Shown: piece by piece, positions 53,273 to 64,000 of the stretch | Position numbering within the stretch: position 1 is the stretch's first letter | How the letters are laid out: each line of letters opens with the position of its first letter | IMG/VR virus record: IMGVR_UViG_3300027977_000009 | From: a virus | DNA length: 64,000 nucleotides | Direction: 5' to 3' (one strand) | The notes under the pieces: generated by a model | What the model was told of the DNA's origin: nothing | Databases searched by the model: none | The model's input: only the letters and a program-made list of their open reading frames with translations | Program-made: the position numbers and the translations under genes

Positions 53273-54367
53273 TCACAAATTTGGCAGTTGATCGTAGTCT
53301 AACTCGGCCGTCATAGCTCCAATAACATAACTAACCGATTCTGCTTCTTGCAGGGCCGACTGCTTTTTAGAAGTGTCCATGTGCTTATTAAACCATGGAA
53401 TAGGAGTCATCTTTGAAGATGGGTTCCAGTACTTGATTCCAATCTGCTTAAGTGCATCTACCGCGTTGAAGTCTACGAAGTCAATCATGATACGCTCGTT
53501 GAGGCCGATTACCGGTCCCTTCTTGAAAAGATATATAGCCCATTCTTTTTCTTCACGGATGACATCTTCATAAATCTTGCGGACTTCTTGTTCACATTCT
53601 GTCTTAGCAATAACAAAACGACTATCTTCTTTGACAACCTGATTGATCATCCATGCCGTCCACTCTTTGTGAAGCAACTCATCATTTAGTATTAATGAAA
53701 TAATTGCGCCGTTACCCATAAAAATCTTGTTCTCTACCATTGCAAGTGACGTAGCAAACGAAACCATAAAGCGGAAAGCTTCAAGCGCGTATGACGCATG
53801 AAGTGCTAACCAAATTGCATTGATATGTTCTTGCTCTGGTACTTCAATACCAAGTTCTTTCTTACAATTAAGAATATGCAATCTCTCGTAGTAGTTGCCG
53901 ACACTTGCAGCCATATCAATGATCTCTTTAGTATCGTGAATCGTATTGAATACTTCTTTTGGCACATTGTAGATGTTGCGGATAATATGTGAATAGGCGC
54001 GCGAGTGAATGTTAGTTTCAAACGACGACCATATCAATACCAGTGACTCTAACTCTGGGATTGACGCAACGGGTGAAAAGATTTGAACAGGGGCGCGGCC
54101 CTGAATGCTATCAAGTGCGGTTTGCCTTAGCAAGTTACTAGTGAAAATATGACGTACCGTATCACTTGCTTCCTTGAAGTCGTTCGCATCCTTAGATAAG
54201 TTGATTTCTTCAGAAATCCAAAAGAATCCACGTTGCGTTTCTTCAAATTTGGCAAGTTTAGGCTGGCGGTATTCTTCAAATCGCTGAACAGTCACTACGC
54301 CATCCAAAAACATCTTTCGTTTTAGATAATTAGGGACTTCACTGATGTTGTATTGATCTTTAGACAT
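53273..54367 (-). CDS. nrdB: Ribonucleotide reductase class Ia beta subunit
   Basis: FFWISEEI, LDSIQGR, ETNIHSRAY, LEAFRF, DELLH, QEAESVSY; start MSKDQY with TAATG coupling. Confidence 0.95.
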   Translation of the reverse strand: MSKDQYNISEVPNYLKRKMFLDGVVTVQRFEEYRQPKLAKFEETQRGFFWISEEINLSKDANDFKEASDTVRHIFTSNLLRQTALDSIQGRAPVQIFSPVASIPELESLVLIWSSFETNIHSRAYSHIIRNIYNVPKEVFNTIHDTKEIIDMAASVGNYYERLHILNCKKELGIEVPEQEHINAIWLALHASYALEAFRFMVSFATSLAMVENKIFMGNGAIISLILNDELLHKEWTAWMINQVVKEDSRFVIAKTECEQEVRKIYEDVIREEKEWAIYLFKKGPVIGLNERIMIDFVDFNAVDALKQIGIKYWNPSSKMTPIPWFNKHMDTSKKQSALQEAESVSYVIGAMTAELDYDQLPNL

Positions 54368-54989: not shown

Positions 54990-56177
54990 TTAATCTCTCA
55001 ATAGGTTGATGATAGTTTTAGCTAAATCTTTAAACCAGCGTTCGTCGTGCCCTCTAGTCGTCTCTGCCGCAACTCCAATACGTACTCCGCTAGTTTCAAC
55101 GAAACCCCTAGTGTCGTTGGGCACGCCGTTCTTGTTGACAGTAATTCCATTTTTTTCTAGCAAGTCAGCAAACTCTCTGCCGCTGTATTTTTCTTTGTTC
55201 AAGTTGAGTGTCATCATGTGACAGTGAGTGCCACCACTAACGACTTCGACGCCGGCGTCTAAGAAGGTTCTTGCCATCGCGTGTGAGTTGATCTTAATGC
55301 GCTTTGCATATATCTTAAACTCAGGCTGTAGTGCCTCGTAGAAACATTGAGCTTTAGCAGCAATGATATGCATTAACGGGCCGCCTTGCGTACCCGGAAA
55401 CACTGCACTATTGATCTTCTTGGAGAATACTTCGTCATTCCAAAGTATCATTCCACCACGGGGACCTCTTAGAGTCTTATGGGTGGTGGTAGTTACTACA
55501 TGTGCGTATGGGAAAGGATTTGGATACTCGTCACCTGCGATAAGTCCTGCATAGTGGCTGATATCAGCGAGCAAAATAGCATCAACAGTGTCAGCAATTT
55601 CACGGAAACGTTGCCAATCAAGTTGTTTACTGTATGCACTGGCGCCAGCAATAAGCATCTTAGGTTTTACTTGCTGTACGATAGCAGCAACACTATCATA
55701 ATCAATCAAGCCGTTGTCATCGACTCCATAGCTATATGCTCCGAACCATTTGCCGCTGACATTCACATTAGCACCATGACTTAGATGTCCACCGCTAGAC
55801 AAATCCATACCAACGATAACATCATTCGGCGTCAAAAATGCTTTGAATACTGCGAGGTTTGCGTTTGCACCGCTGTGAGGTTGAACGTTAGCAAATTTAC
55901 ACCCAAATAATCTAGTGGCATATTCAATAGCGATGTTTTCAATTTCGTCTACGTGTTCGCATCCGTTATAATACCGTTTACCAGGAAGTCCTTCAGCATA
56001 TTTGTTAGTAAGAATACTTCCGCACAGTTGCATGACTTCGTTGCTAGTAAAGTTTTCACTAGCGATGAGTTCGATAGTAGAAGCTTGCCTTTCGGCTTCT
56101 TTTCCTATTACGTTGCTTATTCTAGGATCAATAAACAGATAGTCAGTTTTAGTGTTTAAGTCGTGTTGAGTTGGCAT
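54990..56177 (-). CDS. glyA: Serine hydroxymethyltransferase
   Basis: LIASENF, NKYAEG, QPHSG, GGHLSHG, TTTHKTLRGPRGG, FPGTQGGP. Confidence 0.97.
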   Translation of the reverse strand: MPTQHDLNTKTDYLFIDPRISNVIGKEAERQASTIELIASENFTSNEVMQLCGSILTNKYAEGLPGKRYYNGCEHVDEIENIAIEYATRLFGCKFANVQPHSGANANLAVFKAFLTPNDVIVGMDLSSGGHLSHGANVNVSGKWFGAYSYGVDDNGLIDYDSVAAIVQQVKPKMLIAGASAYSKQLDWQRFREIADTVDAILLADISHYAGLIAGDEYPNPFPYAHVVTTTTHKTLRGPRGGMILWNDEVFSKKINSAVFPGTQGGPLMHIIAAKAQCFYEALQPEFKIYAKRIKINSHAMARTFLDAGVEVVSGGTHCHMMTLNLNKEKYSGREFADLLEKNGITVNKNGVPNDTRGFVETSGVRIGVAAETTRGHDERWFKDLAKTIINLLRD

Positions 56178-56178
56178 T

Positions 56179-56805
56179 TTAATCTTCCAATCCTATTCCC
56201 GCTAGTTCTCTCATTCGTCTGGTGTTAAAATAACTTCTAACTTCTGCTAACATTTCAGTAGATTCCGATAGAACATATTGATATTTGCGGAAATCAGTAT
56301 CATCGTGGGCAAAGTATGTTTTAAGATCATCTGCGTTTTTTATAGTAGTAAACGATTGCCCTGGATTAGTTCTGTCAAATACTGAAACAGAATGTCCCAT
56401 ATCAACTAACCTAGACCAGAGTTTAAACGCGTCCTCGCTGAGGTCAATATCACTTATTAGTTTAATAGATCGGTTGCTATCGTTGAGTATTGCATCGTAT
56501 AAATCCGAAGCGTAAGGTGGTCCGATAAAATCAGGCAGTTTACCTAAAGCCGATACTACCAATCCTTGAGGTCTGATATCTAACACAGCGCCTAACAGAA
56601 TATTTCCGTCTTTTTCATACCAATAATACACCACTTGCTGTCCTTGAATCTTTTTAAGGCTATTTCCCAAATCAATTACAGGAGATCCAGATTTGATTCT
56701 ATCTCTTATACTATACTTAACAGTAGCATACATAGGAAAAGTACCTAATCCCCGTGGCATTTCTGCCAACCAAGTCTCATTAAAGTCAGTTCTGTTAGTG
56801 GTCAT
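56179..56805 (-). CDS. Hypothetical protein
   Basis: 208-aa ORF overlapping the nrdA stop; ends RMRELAGI. Confidence 0.55.
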   Translation of the reverse strand: MTTNRTDFNETWLAEMPRGLGTFPMYATVKYSIRDRIKSGSPVIDLGNSLKKIQGQQVVYYWYEKDGNILLGAVLDIRPQGLVVSALGKLPDFIGPPYASDLYDAILNDSNRSIKLISDIDLSEDAFKLWSRLVDMGHSVSVFDRTNPGQSFTTIKNADDLKTYFAHDDTDFRKYQYVLSESTEMLAEVRSYFNTRRMRELAGIGLED

Positions 56806-58637
56806 AACTTACACGAGCCACACTCAGATTCGTCATCAAAGTCGATAGGATCTAACATGACAGGCATGTCGTCGGCTTCTTCTTTAGAACCCTGCTTATT
56901 AATCAGTGAGTAATAAAGTGTCTTTAAACCATAGTAGTGTGCAAGCATCAAGTTCTTTGCGATCAGGGTAGTAGGTACCTTACGATCAGGGAAGTGTGCT
57001 GGATTGTAGAACGTGTCAGTAGAGATTGATTGATCCATAAATGCTGCCAGTACCGCAGAGGTCTTTAGATAGCCGATGCAGTCAGTTTGCTCCCACATTA
57101 ACTGATAGTTCTTACGTACCTTTGCGTTATGATACTCGGGAACGACTTGAACGAAGGCGCCGGCTTTAGATTCCTTGATAGTAATCAAGTTCATGGGCAA
57201 TGCGATACCATTCGTAGAGTTGATGACAACCGATGATGATTCAACAGGAGCAATTGCCCCTATGGTAGCATTACGAACCCCATGAAGTTTCATCTCTTGT
57301 CTGAGTGATTCCCAGTCAAGTTCAGGGTTAAAATTAGCTAATTCATTAGAGCCTTTTGCCCTGAGTTCCCAAGGGAAAATTCCCTGACCATATCGAGTCT
57401 TGTCGCTATCTAAACATTTGCCACGTTCTTTGGCGAGTTCAATATTAGCTTCCATCAAATAATAGGTCTGTCGCTCTGCCCAACGTTTAACTTCCTGTAG
57501 AGCATCTGCTTCACCATACTTCATACCGCGTTTGGCATGCCAGTATGCGAGATTGGTAACGCCGATACCAATTGGTCTAATCTCATCGTTTGATAGCTTG
57601 CTCTGAATTGACAAGAAATCTTGATAGTCTAGGATATTATTCAAACTACGTAATAGCAGACGACATGCTTTACGCATTTCTTCTGGATTCTTAAATGCTC
57701 CCCAATTCATGCTCCCGAGGGTACACAAACTTATTCGGCCGGCCGGGTCATCTAGTCTTTTGAACGGTTTCGTAGGCAACAGTATCTCAACGCAAAGATT
57801 AGACTGATAGATCGTATGATACTCAGGATCAAAAGGACCTTGATTCATGACGTTATCAATGAAGACAAGATAGATACGACCGGTGTCAGTGCGTTCTTTG
57901 AGGATACCGCCCTTGAATACTTCTTCTGCACTCATCGTCTTCTTGCGAAGGTCTTTGCGCTTCTCGTATTTTACATAGAGTTCTTCGAATCTTGTTGTGT
58001 TCTGATAAAAGGCTTCATACAGATCAGGAACTTCGTTAGGATCAAAGAAGGTAATGTTTTGCTTATTCTTAAAACGTCGCCAGAAGAATGCAGATAATAC
58101 AACACCATAGTCCATATGACGGACACGAGTCTCTTCTGTACCTTGATTATTCTTTAATACGATTAGGTCATCAAATTGATAGTGCCATATGGGATAGAAA
58201 ATGGTAGCACTGGCATTCCTAATTCCACCCTGACTGTTATGGGTCAACACCATTGGTCCTTCATTGCTAGCTGACGCAAAAAAGGTATGTGTATCTTCTA
58301 CCGTAATATCAATGTAGGTTTCATCGTTATTTTGTTCGAAGTTTGCATCCATTAGACGTGTGACTTCAAAGTCAGTTAACACATCGTCGTTGTGGGTAAG
58401 TTCGTTCGGTTTCTTTTGATAAAAGTTTTCGGATTCATCCGAACATATAATAGGATGGTTCACTGAACAATTCAGAACTGTTCCGTTTTTAAATTCTAAA
58501 CGAGTTTGGTCTTGTCTTCCGACACGCGTATTCCATTTGTCGGTAACAGTCTTGAACACAACCTCGCCATGTTCGTTTTTGGTTTTGATTTTCATTCCGA
58601 TCGTCAAGTCTTTAATTTGTATTTTTTTAGTTTTCAT
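56802..58637 (-). CDS. nrdA: Split-intein C-fragment (134 aa) fused to the C-terminal part of ribonucleotide reductase alpha
   Basis: Block B CSVNHP, block F YIDITV, block G LTHN|S, then SQGGIRNASAT, SNLCVEI, LCTLG, KTLYY and C-terminal CGSC. Confidence 0.93.
   Translation of the reverse strand: MKTKKIQIKDLTIGMKIKTKNEHGEVVFKTVTDKWNTRVGRQDQTRLEFKNGTVLNCSVNHPIICSDESENFYQKKPNELTHNDDVLTDFEVTRLMDANFEQNNDETYIDITVEDTHTFFASASNEGPMVLTHNSQGGIRNASATIFYPIWHYQFDDLIVLKNNQGTEETRVRHMDYGVVLSAFFWRRFKNKQNITFFDPNEVPDLYEAFYQNTTRFEELYVKYEKRKDLRKKTMSAEEVFKGGILKERTDTGRIYLVFIDNVMNQGPFDPEYHTIYQSNLCVEILLPTKPFKRLDDPAGRISLCTLGSMNWGAFKNPEEMRKACRLLLRSLNNILDYQDFLSIQSKLSNDEIRPIGIGVTNLAYWHAKRGMKYGEADALQEVKRWAERQTYYLMEANIELAKERGKCLDSDKTRYGQGIFPWELRAKGSNELANFNPELDWESLRQEMKLHGVRNATIGAIAPVESSSVVINSTNGIALPMNLITIKESKAGAFVQVVPEYHNAKVRKNYQLMWEQTDCIGYLKTSAVLAAFMDQSISTDTFYNPAHFPDRKVPTTLIAKNLMLAHYYGLKTLYYSLINKQGSKEEADDMPVMLDPIDFDDESECGSCKL
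58236..58637 (-). mobile_element. IntC of the NrdA split intein
   Basis: Ends His-Asn followed by Ser+1. Confidence 0.92.
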
Positions 58638-60249
58638 CGTTCTTCACCGTCTTCCATACATATACGTTACTACCGCAATCCCAAAACCTTGTATATCCGT
58701 GATTTTTCATGTTTTCCCATTCACTTAAGGTACTATCATATGTAAGTAGTATTGATTGCAGTTTGTGTTTTTGATATTTTGTCCTATGTTCTAACCGACC
58801 ATTTACGATGTACCAATAGTTTGGATCACTGGTGTGACTTAGTGTCATTCCAATTTTGGTATAAACTTGACCGGTGTTCCACCTCAAGTCTGCATAACTA
58901 ATTATCGAGTTAGGAGTATGGGTAGTAATAAAATATGAAAATAGCTTAGATGCTCCACCGACAACTGTACTTTTCGATGCGTAGCGTATCATTTCATATT
59001 CATAATTAGTGTTGTATCTAGCCTTAGAAAAAGACATCACTGCTACAATCTCATTTTGGTATTCTAAAGCGAGTCGTACAGATGCCGAAGCCGCTCCTTG
59101 GATGTGCCATTTGTTCATAAATTCAGTATAAACAGGGGAACTAACCGAAACGATCTTGCATTTTCTTGCAAAGATTTTATCTTGTTTTCCGAGTTTGGCA
59201 AGTATTCGATGTTTTACTATTTCAAATTTTTCAGATAATTCATAGTCCGTGATGTGCATAAGTTGAACATCTTTGATTGCTGCCTGTTTGTTTTTGTTGA
59301 TATGATAAAATCGGTCTTTTATGTATGTTTCGCTGTGCCAAAACAGTCCGTCTATTTCTATGCCGATTTTATAATCGGGTAGATATAGGTCTATCTCTTT
59401 TCCCGATAGAATAGTTCTATCGCTTTGAATACATTCGACATCGTTCTCCTTTAGGAATTGCAGTAATTTTAACTCAAGGCTAGATACTATAATATTCGGG
59501 CGGGCTATGTTATGTTTTTTGTAATAGTTGAGAACAGTTGACCATGCTACTCCTAAGGTTTCTGATAGTGTGGTTGACGGGACGCTTTTATTTTCATGTA
59601 ACCAAACTGGGTCATCAAGTTTATCATAAATATCCGGATCTTTTCGGTTAGCGAGTGCAATGTCTCTAGAAAACGATAGCATCAATGCAGTTGGTACTCC
59701 GTAACGTTTAATGTTGGTTTCTGTAATTTTGTTACGGATAGTTTGGTTTGTTACTGGATTCACATATCCGTATTTCTCTAAATTGGTCTCACTGCGTTTT
59801 TTATTTGCTTCGTCAGTTGTGCCAGGACTCGTTGTCCCATATTTCAACAAATAGTCTTGCTTCAATTGAGCAACATATAGTGGATCTTGTCGGCGATATT
59901 CTACTCCGTAGCGTTCAATATTTGTTGCTTTTTTCTTGTTTTTGATACGTTCGTTTCTATATCCAGTATCTCCAAAATTATGCTCTAATGTGTTGTACTT
60001 TTTCTCTCTTGTATCTTGGCAGACAGACGCGCATTTTTTAGAACAAAAAACCGTATAACCTTTCCTGAATGATAAAAAAGTTGACGGAGAATCACATTCT
60101 TTGCATAACTTAGGTCCAAATAGCCCGTGATATGCCTGATATGCGACTTCTTTTGGTATGCTGTATTTTTCAAGGGCTCTAGCATTTAATGCTCCATTTT
60201 TTGCCAACAAGTGATCCTCAACAAATTTCTTATCAATCATCGTTGTCAT
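58627..60249 (-). CDS. Putative homing endonuclease inside the split nrdA (zinc ribbon, TN.E.YG repeats, Vsr-like nuclease, GNAT/Mom-like C-terminal domain)
   Basis: CKEC...FCSKKC; TNIERYGV, TNLEKYGY, TNIKRYGV; EIDLYLPDYKIGIEIDGLFWHS; GGASKL...ISYADLRW. Confidence 0.75.
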   Translation of the reverse strand: MTTMIDKKFVEDHLLAKNGALNARALEKYSIPKEVAYQAYHGLFGPKLCKECDSPSTFLSFRKGYTVFCSKKCASVCQDTREKKYNTLEHNFGDTGYRNERIKNKKKATNIERYGVEYRRQDPLYVAQLKQDYLLKYGTTSPGTTDEANKKRSETNLEKYGYVNPVTNQTIRNKITETNIKRYGVPTALMLSFSRDIALANRKDPDIYDKLDDPVWLHENKSVPSTTLSETLGVAWSTVLNYYKKHNIARPNIIVSSLELKLLQFLKENDVECIQSDRTILSGKEIDLYLPDYKIGIEIDGLFWHSETYIKDRFYHINKNKQAAIKDVQLMHITDYELSEKFEIVKHRILAKLGKQDKIFARKCKIVSVSSPVYTEFMNKWHIQGAASASVRLALEYQNEIVAVMSFSKARYNTNYEYEMIRYASKSTVVGGASKLFSYFITTHTPNSIISYADLRWNTGQVYTKIGMTLSHTSDPNYWYIVNGRLEHRTKYQKHKLQSILLTYDSTLSEWENMKNHGYTRFWDCGSNVYVWKTVKNDEN

Positions 60250-61177
60250 CCTCGTCTAGAACTTCTACCCAAGTATCTGGTGTCACGCAACAGCTACGCA
60301 GATCACCGAACCACTTCTTTAGGAATGGAATCATTCCTGTGTGCATGATTTCACCACCTCGAATAGGCGAACCGAGGGGACGAAGCCTGCCGATTTCTAA
60401 GCCAATACCAGCACGTTTACTAGCATATTTGGCCATCATCTCACCTGACGCAAAGATGCTATCAAGGTCATCGTCACTGCGAATAAGAACACAACTTGAA
60501 AACTGCTTAGTTGGTGTGCCCAATCCAGCAAGAACAGGTGTCGCTAATGTGAATAGTCCGTCGGATGCAGCATGATAGTAGTCCTTGATGTACTTCATTC
60601 TTGCATTGTTGGGTTCTTCTCTGTGGAATACAGTCGCAGCAGCGACCATGTATCTTACTTGGGGTGTTTCGTAAATCTCTTTAGTAGCACGATTTCGGAC
60701 TAGATATTTTTCAACTAGTTGTTCTACTGCTGCATATGCATATGTTTCGTCTTTGGCATGATCAATGATATCATTCATTTTGTTCCAGTCATCTTCTGAA
60801 TACCATTCAAGAAGTTCCGGAGTGTAAAGACCTGTAGCTATATTCTTTTTGACGATCTCATATAGATGAGGAGGAGTATACTGACCGTAAACTGACTTCC
60901 TGAGCATAGAAAGTCTTTGTTTTCCCGCTACATATTGATAGTTAGTATTACCGATATCTGGGTTCGATTCAACGTCAATCAAGTCTACGATGGCACGAAG
61001 AGTAAGTTCATCAATTTCTTGCGTAGTGATGCCGTCATAAAATTGAGGAGAAGCCTTGATTTCTATCATAGACTGGCTCACATCTGTGATGCCTTTACAT
61101 ATTTTCGTGATTTGCGCTTGCCATTTTTCTAGTGACAGTGGCTCTGTTTTCCCATTTCTCTTTATAATACTAATCAT
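60233..61177 (-). CDS. nrdA: N-terminal part of ribonucleotide reductase alpha (ATP cone) fused to the 18-aa intein N-fragment
   Basis: IIKRNG ATP cone, YETPQ, LATPV, QFSSCVL, RAGIG, DLRSC|CVTPDT. Confidence 0.93.
   Translation of the reverse strand: MISIIKRNGKTEPLSLEKWQAQITKICKGITDVSQSMIEIKASPQFYDGITTQEIDELTLRAIVDLIDVESNPDIGNTNYQYVAGKQRLSMLRKSVYGQYTPPHLYEIVKKNIATGLYTPELLEWYSEDDWNKMNDIIDHAKDETYAYAAVEQLVEKYLVRNRATKEIYETPQVRYMVAAATVFHREEPNNARMKYIKDYYHAASDGLFTLATPVLAGLGTPTKQFSSCVLIRSDDDLDSIFASGEMMAKYASKRAGIGLEIGRLRPLGSPIRGGEIMHTGMIPFLKKWFGDLRSCCVTPDTWVEVLDEDDNDD
60236..60289 (-). mobile_element. IntN of the NrdA split intein (18 aa)
   Basis: CVTPDTWVEV block A followed by acidic tail LDEDDNDD and stop. 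Confidence 0.9.
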
Positions 61178-61617
61178 ATTTTACCTATTTTCTTTGCTAG
61201 CACACCTATATCGATACGCCTTGTAATTTTAAATTCTGTTAGATCAGTATTTAGTACTGACTCCGGGCACCAGTTCATTACATATTTTGCGTTATCGACC
61301 AAGACTACTACACTATCTCTATTATCATACATTATTTCCACAAAGTCAATGTCCTGTACTCCCAATAACATCAATGTGTATAACATACCTAAAGCACGCG
61401 CATACTCACAATAGTTATTATCATTCAACAAGTTCCAGGGATCGGGCCAATCTTGTATATCTGCCGGATGCAGATAATGATTACTCATTGGGCATTTTTG
61501 CCAAAACCTGTCGACCTCAACACATATAGTTTGTATATCGGAGTCTTTCAATGATGTTCTTAACTCATGCCAATTTCGGAGCCTAATGTAATAATCAGAC
61601 AAGAACACATTCATCAA
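61174..61617 (-). CDS. Hypothetical phage protein
   Basis: 147-aa ORF, WPDPWNLL..N.YC; ATGA coupling to nrdA. Confidence 0.6.
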   Translation of the reverse strand: MMNVFLSDYYIRLRNWHELRTSLKDSDIQTICVEVDRFWQKCPMSNHYLHPADIQDWPDPWNLLNDNNYCEYARALGMLYTLMLLGVQDIDFVEIMYDNRDSVVVLVDNAKYVMNWCPESVLNTDLTEFKITRRIDIGVLAKKIGKI

Positions 61618-61647
61618 TATACTATCTTAAAAAACAAATTGCAGGCA

Positions 61648-62661
61648 TCAAAACATCATGAAGAAATTACCAGAGTTTGCGCTTCCTGGTGTATATTCGA
61701 TTATAATCAATCCATTGCCGCCATCGCCGCCGAAACCGCCGTTGCATGTGCCGTCGCCTGAAGAATTTATCGAGCCACCGGACCCGCCACCGCCGCCGCC
61801 CACTCCGCCATTCCGGCCGTTGCCCCCAAAGATGAAATTGCCAGATATCGTTGCGGAGGCGCCCCCTCCGCCTCCGCCTCCGCCGCCGGCACCCGCTGTT
61901 CCACCTGCGGTAATAGTATATTCAGCACCCGCGCCGCCTTCGCCGCCGTCGGTGCCGGACTCGTTGGTGGAGCCAGATGCTCCGCCGCCGCCGCCGCCAG
62001 CACCGGTTGTACCATCGCCGCCTACTACGACGCCGGTGCCGCCTGCGCCACCGGCATTGTTTGGATATCCGTTACCGCCGGTGCCACCAGTTTGGGTGAC
62101 CGGTGCTCCGCCGACAGAACGTACTCCGCCACCGCCCGATCCTCCCGTTCTAATTCCAGCAATTGTGGCGCCGCCAGCGAAGCCATTGCCAAGATTGCTG
62201 GCGGCGGATCCGCCAGCACCACCGCCCCCCGAAACACTAGAAAGTGCAGCACTGCCACCGGCACCTCCGCTATATCTTGTAGTGCCGACTCCTGCCCCAG
62301 CAACGCCGCCAGCACCGCCGGATGTGCCGGCTGGGCCAGAACCGCCCTTAGCTAGAGCGCCATTTGTAGCAAGAGTAGGAGCACTATTAGCAGCTTTATT
62401 AAACCAAGTGTCGCCACCGTTCTGAATCTCGTCAACGAGGCCGCCGGTACCGACCCGTATGTTTGCTGTTCCGCCCCCGGTAAGACCCGTAACTGTAGTA
62501 AGAGAAAACGCCCCGCCGCCGCCGCCGCCAGACGTGAAGCCGACGGCGCCGCCAGAGCCGGCGCCGCCGCCGCCGATACAAATAACGGTAACAACTGTCG
62601 AGGTAGTGATGTCAGCTGGTATAGTCCAAGTTGTGCCAGAAGTAAGTTTTATCGTAGGCAT
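61648..62661 (-). CDS. Glycine-rich tail-associated protein
   Basis: Very Gly-rich, IGGGGAG...GGGG and GGNGLIIIEY; locally GC-rich. Confidence 0.7.
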   Translation of the reverse strand: MPTIKLTSGTTWTIPADITTSTVVTVICIGGGGAGSGGAVGFTSGGGGGGAFSLTTVTGLTGGGTANIRVGTGGLVDEIQNGGDTWFNKAANSAPTLATNGALAKGGSGPAGTSGGAGGVAGAGVGTTRYSGGAGGSAALSSVSGGGGAGGSAASNLGNGFAGGATIAGIRTGGSGGGGVRSVGGAPVTQTGGTGGNGYPNNAGGAGGTGVVVGGDGTTGAGGGGGGASGSTNESGTDGGEGGAGAEYTITAGGTAGAGGGGGGGGGASATISGNFIFGGNGRNGGVGGGGGGSGGSINSSGDGTCNGGFGGDGGNGLIIIEYTPGSANSGNFFMMF

Positions 62662-62873: not shown

Positions 62874-64000
62874 CTAAGCCTGCTGCGCTACAGCAATTAC
62901 ATCCCAAAATCCAGCAGTAGAATTATATATGCATCCGATGTAGACTGTTTTAGAAATTACGGTAGTTGTTGGCAGTGTTGTACCTATAGCCCGATAACCA
63001 CCGGCAGATGTAGTCCATGTCAATGCCTGTGCCGTGCCGTTATCACCAATTCGTATTGTTAGTTTTTGTCCGTTAACAGGAGTTCCACTTGGTATAGCTA
63101 TAGTTGCGGCCGTTGCAAGGGCGGTTACCTCATATTGATCAGATGTGTCACCGGTTGGTGTGATAGTAGCAGCCGAAGCGATTGCACCGATGCGTGGATT
63201 AATGCGGGTCGAGCTAATACCGGTACCGGTGACAACAAGAACGTTAGCGTTACCGGCAACAGACATGTTGATATTGCCGTTGGCTGCTGGCATGTTGACG
63301 TTCGAGTTGCCATTTGCATAAGGACCAATCAAGTTACCAGCAGTTAAGTTACCTGATACACCCAATGTACCAGTAATGTTGGCACCAGTTGAGGTAGCAA
63401 TGATTCTTGCTCCACCAACTGCATTTAGTGTAACGTTTCCGTTTGCTGTTATAGTTACGTTTGAGTTGCCGTTCTGCAATAATCCACTGTTGATGGTAGT
63501 GATGTTACCAGTCGTGATAGTTGCAGTTGATAATGTACCGACTGATGTAATATTTGGCTGTGCTGCTGTTGTTACGGTACCTGCTGTGGTAGCACTTGTT
63601 GCTGTGCCGGCAGTAGCTACACTTAGATTTGCTACTTGTGTCGTTGAAGTCACTACGAATGGGGCAGTACCAGTTGCTATGTTAGAGATGAGTTGCGGTG
63701 CGGTTATGTTTGCAGTAGCGAGTACTTGTGCAGTACCTAAGTTACCAACGTTAGCATTACCTGACACGCCCAATGTACCAGTAATGTTGGCACCAGTTGA
63801 GGTAGCAATGATTCTTGCTCCACCAACTGCATTTAGTGTAACGTTTCCGTTTGCTGTTATAGTTACGTTTGAGTTGCCGTTCTGCAATAATCCACTGTTG
63901 ATGGTAGTGATGTTACCAGTCGTGATAGTTGCAGTTGATAATGTACCGACTGATGTAATATTTGGCTGTGCTGCTGTTGTTACGGTACCTGCTGTGGTAG
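62874..64000 (-). CDS. Tail fibre-like protein, 3' part (starts beyond the window end)
   Basis: Frame open to the window end; repeats shared with 21879-24584; C-terminal YIGCIYN....WDVIAV. Confidence 0.75.
   Translation of the reverse strand, partial: TTAGTVTTAAQPNITSVGTLSTATITTGNITTINSGLLQNGNSNVTITANGNVTLNAVGGARIIATSTGANITGTLGVSGNANVGNLGTAQVLATANITAPQLISNIATGTAPFVVTSTTQVANLSVATAGTATSATTAGTVTTAAQPNITSVGTLSTATITTGNITTINSGLLQNGNSNVTITANGNVTLNAVGGARIIATSTGANITGTLGVSGNLTAGNLIGPYANGNSNVNMPAANGNINMSVAGNANVLVVTGTGISSTRINPRIGAIASAATITPTGDTSDQYEVTALATAATIAIPSGTPVNGQKLTIRIGDNGTAQALTWTTSAGGYRAIGTTLPTTTVISKTVYIGCIYNSTAGFWDVIAVAQQA
63361..64000. repeat. Identical direct repeat of at least 232 bp (63361-63592 and 63769-64000, 408-bp period)
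   Basis: Base-by-base comparison; the second copy reaches the window edge. Confidence 0.85.

Follow-up and report, generated by a model that had tools for sequence, protein, structure and literature searches.

A stretch of 64,000 nucleotides of viral DNA (IMG/VR record IMGVR_UViG_3300027977_000009; hereafter the window, i.e., this stretch at its full length), which stems from an uncultured, probably giant phage, contains the class Ia ribonucleotide reductase (RNR) gene nrdA in two separate parts, with another gene situated between them and with foreign residues at both broken ends. The question raised by this locus is how, if at all, an intact NrdA protein is obtained from it. Sequence data and structural models indicate that the foreign residues most probably constitute a functional natural class-1 intein (Cys1, Ser+1) with an atypical split, such that the two parts of NrdA would be joined at the protein level. 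A preliminary description had proposed that a split intein whose N-terminal fragment (IntN) is very short interrupts nrdA in the loop-2 region; all tests run support this core proposal, to which a nuclease gene within the split can be added. The locus comprises the following features:

60290-61177, minus strand: nrdA N-extein, 296 aa (list of open reading frames (ORFs); Pfam PF03477, PF00317, and PF02867 positions 1-61; phmmer to R1 chains ending at residue 292)
60236-60289, minus strand: putative IntN, 18 aa, stop codon at 60233-60235 (sequence; alignment of split loci; ratio of nonsynonymous to synonymous substitution rates, dN/dS; complex model)
58627-60249, minus strand: free-standing homing endonuclease gene, 540 aa, predicted Hef type / EDxHD (Vsr-like) (PHROG 3339; tblastn; Pfam DUF7487; family profile against 3R3P)
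58236-58637, minus strand: putative C-terminal intein fragment (IntC), 134 aa, its first strand basic, with block B (S-x-N-H), block F, and a block G that closes with His-Asn (sequence; alignments; profile, model, Foldseek, dN/dS)
56805-58235, minus strand: nrdA C-extein, 477 aa, starting with Ser+1, stop codon at 56802-56804 (Pfam PF02867 positions 70-522, E 5.8e-89; phmmer to R1 from residue 293)
53432-54271, minus strand: match to nrdB (small subunit), uninterrupted (PF00268, E 2e-40, no internal stops; converted to window coordinates from G000:C1:9198-10037)

The break in nrdA and its position in the specificity loop

The first ORF (60233-61177, minus strand, 314 aa) consists of the N-extein, ending in RSC, and a Cys-initial tail of 18 residues, after which a stop follows; Pfam recognizes in it an ATP-cone, the all-alpha domain of RNR, and positions 1-61 of the barrel. 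The third ORF (56802-58637, minus strand, 611 aa) begins with 134 foreign residues ending in THN and passes directly into SQGG of the C-extein, in whose sequence the thiyl-radical Cys region, the Tyr-Tyr pair, and the C-terminal Cys pair are found. The entire gap between the nrdA halves is occupied by the middle ORF (58627-60249, minus strand, 540 aa). In all these placements the preliminary description proved exact on the sequence, and the overlaps it gave for the middle ORF (17 nt with the IntN ORF and 11 nt with the IntC ORF) were confirmed on the DNA. Translational coupling of the three overlapping ORFs is plausible from this layout. An alternative in-frame ATG of the nuclease gene is situated at 60240 and is better spaced, with GAGGA 7 nt upstream; if it is used, the first overlap amounts to 8 nt rather than 17 nt.

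Concerning the start of IntC, the ATG at 58637 is favoured because a beginning with M(V)KTKK is conserved in more than 100 relatives. The public gene call for an identical IntC-bearing protein (P0001, 597 aa) begins at Met15 and not at this ATG, by which the first intein strand (window 58595-58637) is removed, such that automated annotation would hide the true N-terminus of the intein.

When compared with Escherichia coli R1 structures by phmmer, the N-extein can be aligned as far as residue 292, and the alignment of the C-extein begins at residue 293. The exteins thus meet at Cys292/Ser293 with no residue lost or gained, and since the alignment ends at 292 and resumes at 293, removal of the foreign parts restores the stretch S-C-S-Q-G-G intact. 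The position of the junction in class Ia loop 2, as given in the preliminary description, is therefore seamless. Ser293, Gln294, and Arg298 of R1 are part of specificity loop 2 and are residues by which the effector is read and the substrate contacted (bioRxiv 10.1101/2021.07.31.454598). A junction one residue earlier, with the intein beginning at the first of the two Cys, was rejected, as the conserved Cys292 would be deleted. The intein lineage as a whole makes use of two insertion points one codon apart, both of which give the same restored extein sequence: in KARL-1 and Thanatos the intein lies before the conserved Cys292 and the +1 residue is Cys; in the window (60236-60292, 58230-58240), SUMAE, and the IMG/VR relatives it lies after Cys292 and the +1 residue is Ser.

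Evidence for a probably functional split intein and competing explanations

The residues required of an intein are strictly conserved. Cys1 is invariant in the alignments of 15 split loci and of all contiguous relatives, as are the block B residues S-x-N-H-P among the aligned relatives. The same holds for Asp and His of block F, for the His-Asn at the end of the intein, and for Ser+1 (15 aligned loci). At the C-junction, His-Asn-Ser is found in 120 of 120 homologues among the matches listed. By these motif residues (Cys1, blocks B, F, and G, Ser+1) the two foreign parts jointly classify as a class-1 intein. A profile of 15 family sequences matches solved inteins (Pab PolC, E 8.6e-5; MJ0781, 1.2e-4; Aes123 PolB1, 6e-4).

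The fold was modelled for the contiguous relative L012, which shares 72% identity with the window across the aligned IntC (AlphaFold2, mean predicted local distance difference test score (pLDDT) 92.6). Foldseek assigns this model to inteins, bacterial intein-like (BIL) domains, and Hedgehog Hint domains with a probability of 1.00 and template modelling (TM) scores of 0.65-0.80, the matches including NrdJ-1, gp41-1, Ssp DnaB M86, and VidaL. The model accordingly predicts the horseshoe Hint fold of a class 1 intein. The split point of the window maps to loop 12-19 of L012, between strands 7-11 and 20-24; this loop we take to be the S1 position, in view also of the S1 split of Ssp DnaB. A break right after the first N-terminal strand pair and ahead of the first helix is the S1 position of VidaL and PolB16 (PMC13014065).

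Both intein halves appear to be under purifying selection in split relatives. Across 15 distinct split loci, approximate dN/dS values are 0.10 for IntC, 0.03 for the 12-residue core of IntN, 0.05 for the adjoining C-extein, and 0.57 for the tail of IntN. The core, i.e., the first 12-13 residues, is invariant or nearly so in these loci; the tail after the core, which is acidic and six residues long in the window, is variable among them.

In a complex prediction that paired IntC plus six residues with the C-terminal 36 residues of NrdA-N, the score was 0.67, against 0.02 for the best of three controls; this mark was attained for 58 of 80 solved complexes and for 2 of 110 mismatched pairs. Agreement between the runs amounts to at least 88% of contacts, with a partner pLDDT of at least 51. 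On the side of NrdA-N, the contacts are situated on partner residues 17-31, which span the two final residues of the extein and the intein up to residue 13, and on the side of IntC at 1-9 (first strand), 15-18, 55-62 (block B), 119-125 (block F), and 132-134 (Thr-His-Asn). In this model, intein residues 1-13 are docked on IntC, and the acidic tail is not confidently placed. Structures of split inteins have already been solved, so that the pass may reflect fold likeness or memory and not independent evidence.

The preliminary description had further stated that the IntN tail is acidic and the start of IntC basic, and that this charge complementarity drives association. The composition is as described; the proposed role is not supported beyond this composition, as the tail is more weakly constrained than any other part of the intein and nearly free to vary, is absent in phage KARL-1, and lacks a confident position in the complex model. 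Its net charge ranges from about 0 to -5 in the relatives, and its GAC/GAG/GAT codons double as the Shine-Dalgarno-like GAGGA and the start region of the nuclease gene. Electrostatic steering of the halves is possible, the composition being what speaks for it.

In the favoured explanation, one transcription unit would give rise to three polypeptides, i.e., NrdA-N with the 18-aa IntN, the Hef/EDxHD endonuclease, and the 134-aa IntC with NrdA-C. The first 12-13 residues of IntN would supply the missing strand alongside the first strand of IntC. With the Hint fold completed in this way, Cys1 would come to lie close to block B and the terminal His-Asn, and trans-splicing would then yield an NrdA of 773 aa with an intact specificity loop. 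The endonuclease would be the selfish driver, which invaded the first hairpin loop of what had been a contiguous mini-intein and now spreads the cassette by homing. Association of the halves, the splicing chemistry, and the homing activity and homing target are what we infer. This explanation is supported by the persistence of the split state after nuclease loss and by the uninterrupted nrdB nearby.

Several points weigh against it. The Pfam intein match of the window protein itself is below threshold (E 3e-4, 21 bits vs 35.8), and phmmer of IntC alone against the Protein Data Bank (PDB) yielded only chance matches and no solved intein, which is why the family profile was needed for the intein match. 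The fold model was made for contiguous L012 and not for the two chains of the window. The dN/dS values are rough since dS is near saturation (1.2-1.9). Phages can often use the RNR of their host, so that selection on nrdA need not be absolute.

Among the alternatives, it is conceivable but unlikely that the intein halves do not splice and merely serve as non-covalent docking tags that hold the NrdA fragments together, as do the mobE-derived tails of Aeh1. A split nrdA that is active without ligation has a precedent (Crona et al. 2011, PMC3045599), and the complex model shows IntN docked on IntC and not chemistry. However, residues needed for chemistry only (Cys1, block B His, block F Asp/His, the terminal His-Asn, and Ser+1) are invariant, and an appendage of 150 residues left unremoved in loop 2 would occupy the effector/substrate site.

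Very unlikely is the explanation that nrdA has lost its function through a selfish insertion and is in decay, the phage depending on host RNR. Intein-riddled nrdA genes of Campylobacter phages have been interpreted as degenerating (PMC3653736), and nrdA of relatives of the window locus exhibits up to three additional breaks. Yet the three ORFs are intact, the dN/dS of the exteins is 0.05 among split loci, the catalytic NrdA residues are present in the sequence, nrdB is intact, and the same layout recurs in more than 100 clusters; frameshifts or lost catalytic residues, which decay would produce in most family members, were not seen.

Hardly credible, finally, is removal of the insert from the RNA, as a group I intron containing the nuclease gene, or a translational bypass, either leading to a contiguous precursor and cis-splicing: group I introns with homing endonuclease genes are frequent in phage RNR genes (PMC3653736) and contiguous alleles of the same intein exist, but no Rfam family was matched on 56000-62000 on either strand at E up to 1, the nuclease ORF spans the gap and overlaps both neighbours such that no space is left for an intron core, RNA structure at the junctions is not significant (z = -0.03 and 0.69), and nuclease-less alleles retain the stop, a short spacer, and the conserved start codon.

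The nuclease gene and the allelic forms of the intein

The 540-aa product of the middle gene matches PHROG 3339 'homing endonuclease' (E 2.6e-123) and, in tblastn, the annotated Hef-like homing endonucleases of PA5oct, KARL-1, RaK2, and others; Pfam DUF7487 is found in it as well. A profile of five nucleases from the same site (49-63% identical) matches the catalytic domain of I-Bth0305I (3R3P, E 2.7e-6), with Asp287, His305, and Asp335 of the window nuclease aligned with Asp196, His213 (both mutated there), and Asp222 of I-Bth0305I, and these catalytic Asp, His, and Asp positions are invariant in the five family members. The profile was needed for this match because the window nuclease alone matched nothing in the PDB by phmmer. 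Hef-type phage proteins have been placed in the EDxHD family (PMC3239194), and by its sequence the middle gene classifies as a member of this Hef / Vsr-like EDxHD homing endonuclease family. Its residues from around 350 to 540 (window 58627-59200) form a strongly conserved C-terminal domain of 190 residues with no Pfam match.

A search with the IntC region retrieved 220 proteins, most of them around 610 aa long and with the conserved first strand M(V)KTKK; the same intein is present in more than 100 protein clusters and in 55 IMG/VR loci. The abundance of this family and its contiguous forms go beyond the preliminary description. The IntN of the split IMG/VR alleles is 13-23 aa long, mostly 19, with 13 aa in L053. 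Their gap ORFs are of several types: ORFs of 364-387 aa with a GIY-YIG-like N-terminus, Hef ORFs of 538-543 aa or in a 917-aa form, an HNH+NUMOD3 ORF, and a 277-aa DUF7487 ORF. For the 364-387 aa middle ORFs, Pfam and PHROG gave nothing, and the GIY-YIG-like N-terminal motif was recognized by eye only.

In some split alleles the nuclease is deleted, with gaps of 18 nt or 133-140 nt in which remnants of the nuclease 3' end are kept, and both intein halves remain conserved in these nuclease-less alleles. Contiguous alleles have a length of 142-153 aa, and in L039 and L029 the former start-codon Met is still present within the loop, as re-fusion by deletion would predict. In cultured phages, contiguous versions are found in Shewanella phage Thanatos-2 and Vibrio phage SUMAE. 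The IntC of one nuclease-less allele does not differ from that of four nuclease-bearing alleles, and one contiguous allele clusters with split alleles in the IntC tree (Shimodaira-Hasegawa-like approximate likelihood ratio test, SH-aLRT, 97). This tree, based on 131 columns, is mostly unresolved (13 of 22 inner branches open), and only identical or starred groupings were used. A scan of prokaryote genomes with the intein alignment revealed no relative, at a low sensitivity and with one usable pattern only.

We slightly favour, on balance, the view that the first hairpin loop of this nrdA intein constitutes a second natural landing site of the Hint domain for homing endonuclease genes, used by at least three unrelated types (Hef/EDxHD, GIY-YIG-like, HNH), with the intein cycling among contiguous, split with nuclease, split without nuclease, and re-fused states. 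If so, a single intein would be available from this family in cis and trans forms that match each other, and its IntN cores would be as short as 12 residues (KARL-1), shorter than any characterised natural IntN.

The T4-like Acinetobacter phage KARL-1 (MH713599; L001 2225-5944) possesses an intein split after 12 residues and without the acidic tail, and its gap holds a 299-aa DUF7487 ORF; its annotation contains only two nucleoside diphosphate reductase fragments and a hypothetical protein. If active, this 12-aa IntN would fall below the 15 aa of the shortest natural IntN characterised so far.

Many relatives (P0004, P0008, P0009, P0020, P0033) exhibit further breaks in nrdA, up to three. A second split intein is situated directly before the thiyl-radical Cys (the site of Dassa et al. 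2009) in around 31 clusters, and a break around 18 residues after this Cys, with a tail devoid of Cys, in around 15 clusters; in P0020, a further intein-like element is inserted close to the PVES motif. The window nrdA is without these extra breaks. P0023 contains an insert of 41 residues within the loop of a contiguous intein, and P0023, P0002, P0038, and P0070 look like intermediates of decay or re-fusion, or read-throughs in gene calling.

Concerning the surroundings of the window locus, nrdB is situated around 2.5 kb downstream of the nrdA C-half on the same strand, with a 208-aa ORF and a serine hydroxymethyltransferase-like ORF in between. No second nrdA was found in the record, which covers an estimated 18% of the genome, and megablast of the locus against the phage collection gave no match. 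Next to the nrdA cluster lie two large minus-strand ORFs (61648-62661 and 62874-63998) whose complexity is very low, one Gly-rich and the other consisting of repeated Thr/Ala/Asn/Gly units with an internal duplication; both probably encode fibre-like structural proteins. The G+C content rises to 0.50 at these ORFs, compared to around 0.41 elsewhere.

Comparison with known systems

The locus is a "fractured gene" in the sense of Dassa et al. 2009, its split being atypical and similar to that of VidaL and PolB16, and does not represent a new kind of element. Searches of the literature with the sequence words of this intein and for an atypical split in nrdA loop 2 found no paper, subscription papers lying outside both searches. 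In this family, a homing endonuclease has split an intein away from the usual endonuclease-domain site, and the split is placed in the specificity loop of an enzyme that the phage appears to keep under selection.

The organization is most similar to that of the fractured genes NrdA-1 to NrdA-7 (PMC2677866), which show the same order on one strand, i.e., N-extein with IntN, free-standing endonuclease, and IntC with C-extein, and which likewise concern nrdA of uncultured phages. The endonucleases of fractured genes are of the GIY-YIG or Vsr-like type (PMC2677866), and the Vsr-like family to which the window nuclease is assigned was first defined from fractured genes in that study. The overlap of the nuclease 3' end with the start of IntC is 11 nt in the window and 6-69 bp in the published loci (PMC2677866).

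Despite this general similarity, there are some differences: The published NrdA loci are interrupted directly N-terminal to the thiyl-radical Cys (PMC2677866), whereas the window site, Cys292/Ser293, lies around 147 residues earlier. Five modelled split inteins of that study fit the structure of the canonically split DnaE (PMC2677866), whereas the window intein is split after 18 residues; a canonical split, with a long IntN and an IntC of around 35-50 aa, is thus not present in the window, where IntN has 18 and IntC 134 aa. A spacer of 27-51 nt, a hairpin, and a late-promoter box before the nuclease, recurrent but not strict in the published loci (PMC2677866), are absent in the window. The T4-type late promoter box TATAAATA occurs at three sites in the window, no more than expected by chance and none of them within 6 kb of the locus, and no regulatory hairpin was found at the two start sites (z-scores -0.03 and 0.69).

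Concerning the nuclease, the 3R3P catalytic domain of I-Bth0305I (Taylor et al. 2011, PMC3239194) aligns with residues of around 258-348 of the window protein. The latter, however, is much longer (540 aa), with an additional N-terminal Cys-rich region, DUF7487 repeats, and the C-terminal domain of 190 residues, and it is free-standing within a split intein, whereas I-Bth0305I is intron-encoded. In nrdA-a/mobE/nrdA-b of Aeromonas phage Aeh1 (Crona et al. 2011, PMC3045599), nrdA is also cut by a homing endonuclease gene and new tails are present on both fragments. Assembly in Aeh1 is reported to be non-covalent and without an intein, whereas the tails in the window are predicted to form a complete Hint domain with all splicing residues.

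Regarding the intein, short natural IntN fragments are known from PolB16 OarG (15 aa), VidaL (16 aa), AceL TerL (25 aa), and GOS TerL (37 aa) (PMC13014065, PMC10189870). The preliminary description was right in counting the window IntN among the shortest natural ones; it is not the shortest, being surpassed by PolB16 and VidaL and, within its own family, by L053 and KARL-1. Like the window intein, the four possess a very short N-fragment and a long C-fragment (around 130-170 aa) and are of phage or metagenomic origin (PMC13014065, PMC10189870), but they reside in different host proteins and at different insertion sites. VidaL and PolB16 are split right after the first strand pair (S1; PMC13014065), as is the window intein according to the L012 model. 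The likeness between VidaL (6vgv) and the L012 model is at the level of the fold only (TM 0.68, 14% identity), and concerning the nucleophiles, the window has Cys1/Ser+1 and PolB16 Ser/Ser. As judged from the models, the window intein would work like VidaL and PolB16 but belongs to a separate intein lineage.

In protein semisynthesis and in the editing of proteins in living cells, split inteins with a short IntN are in demand, since their small half is accessible to peptide synthesis; the window IntN, like those of the four known inteins, is short enough for this. Around four natural inteins of this kind have been characterised, and biochemically so, whereas the window intein is known here from sequence and models; its family adds more than 100 clusters with IntN fragments of 12-23 residues and Cys1/Ser+1. 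Natural contiguous counterparts and many variants make screening and a direct comparison of cis- with trans-splicing possible. Among the inteins compared, it is only in the window family that variants with an IntN of 12-23 aa are found beside contiguous alleles.

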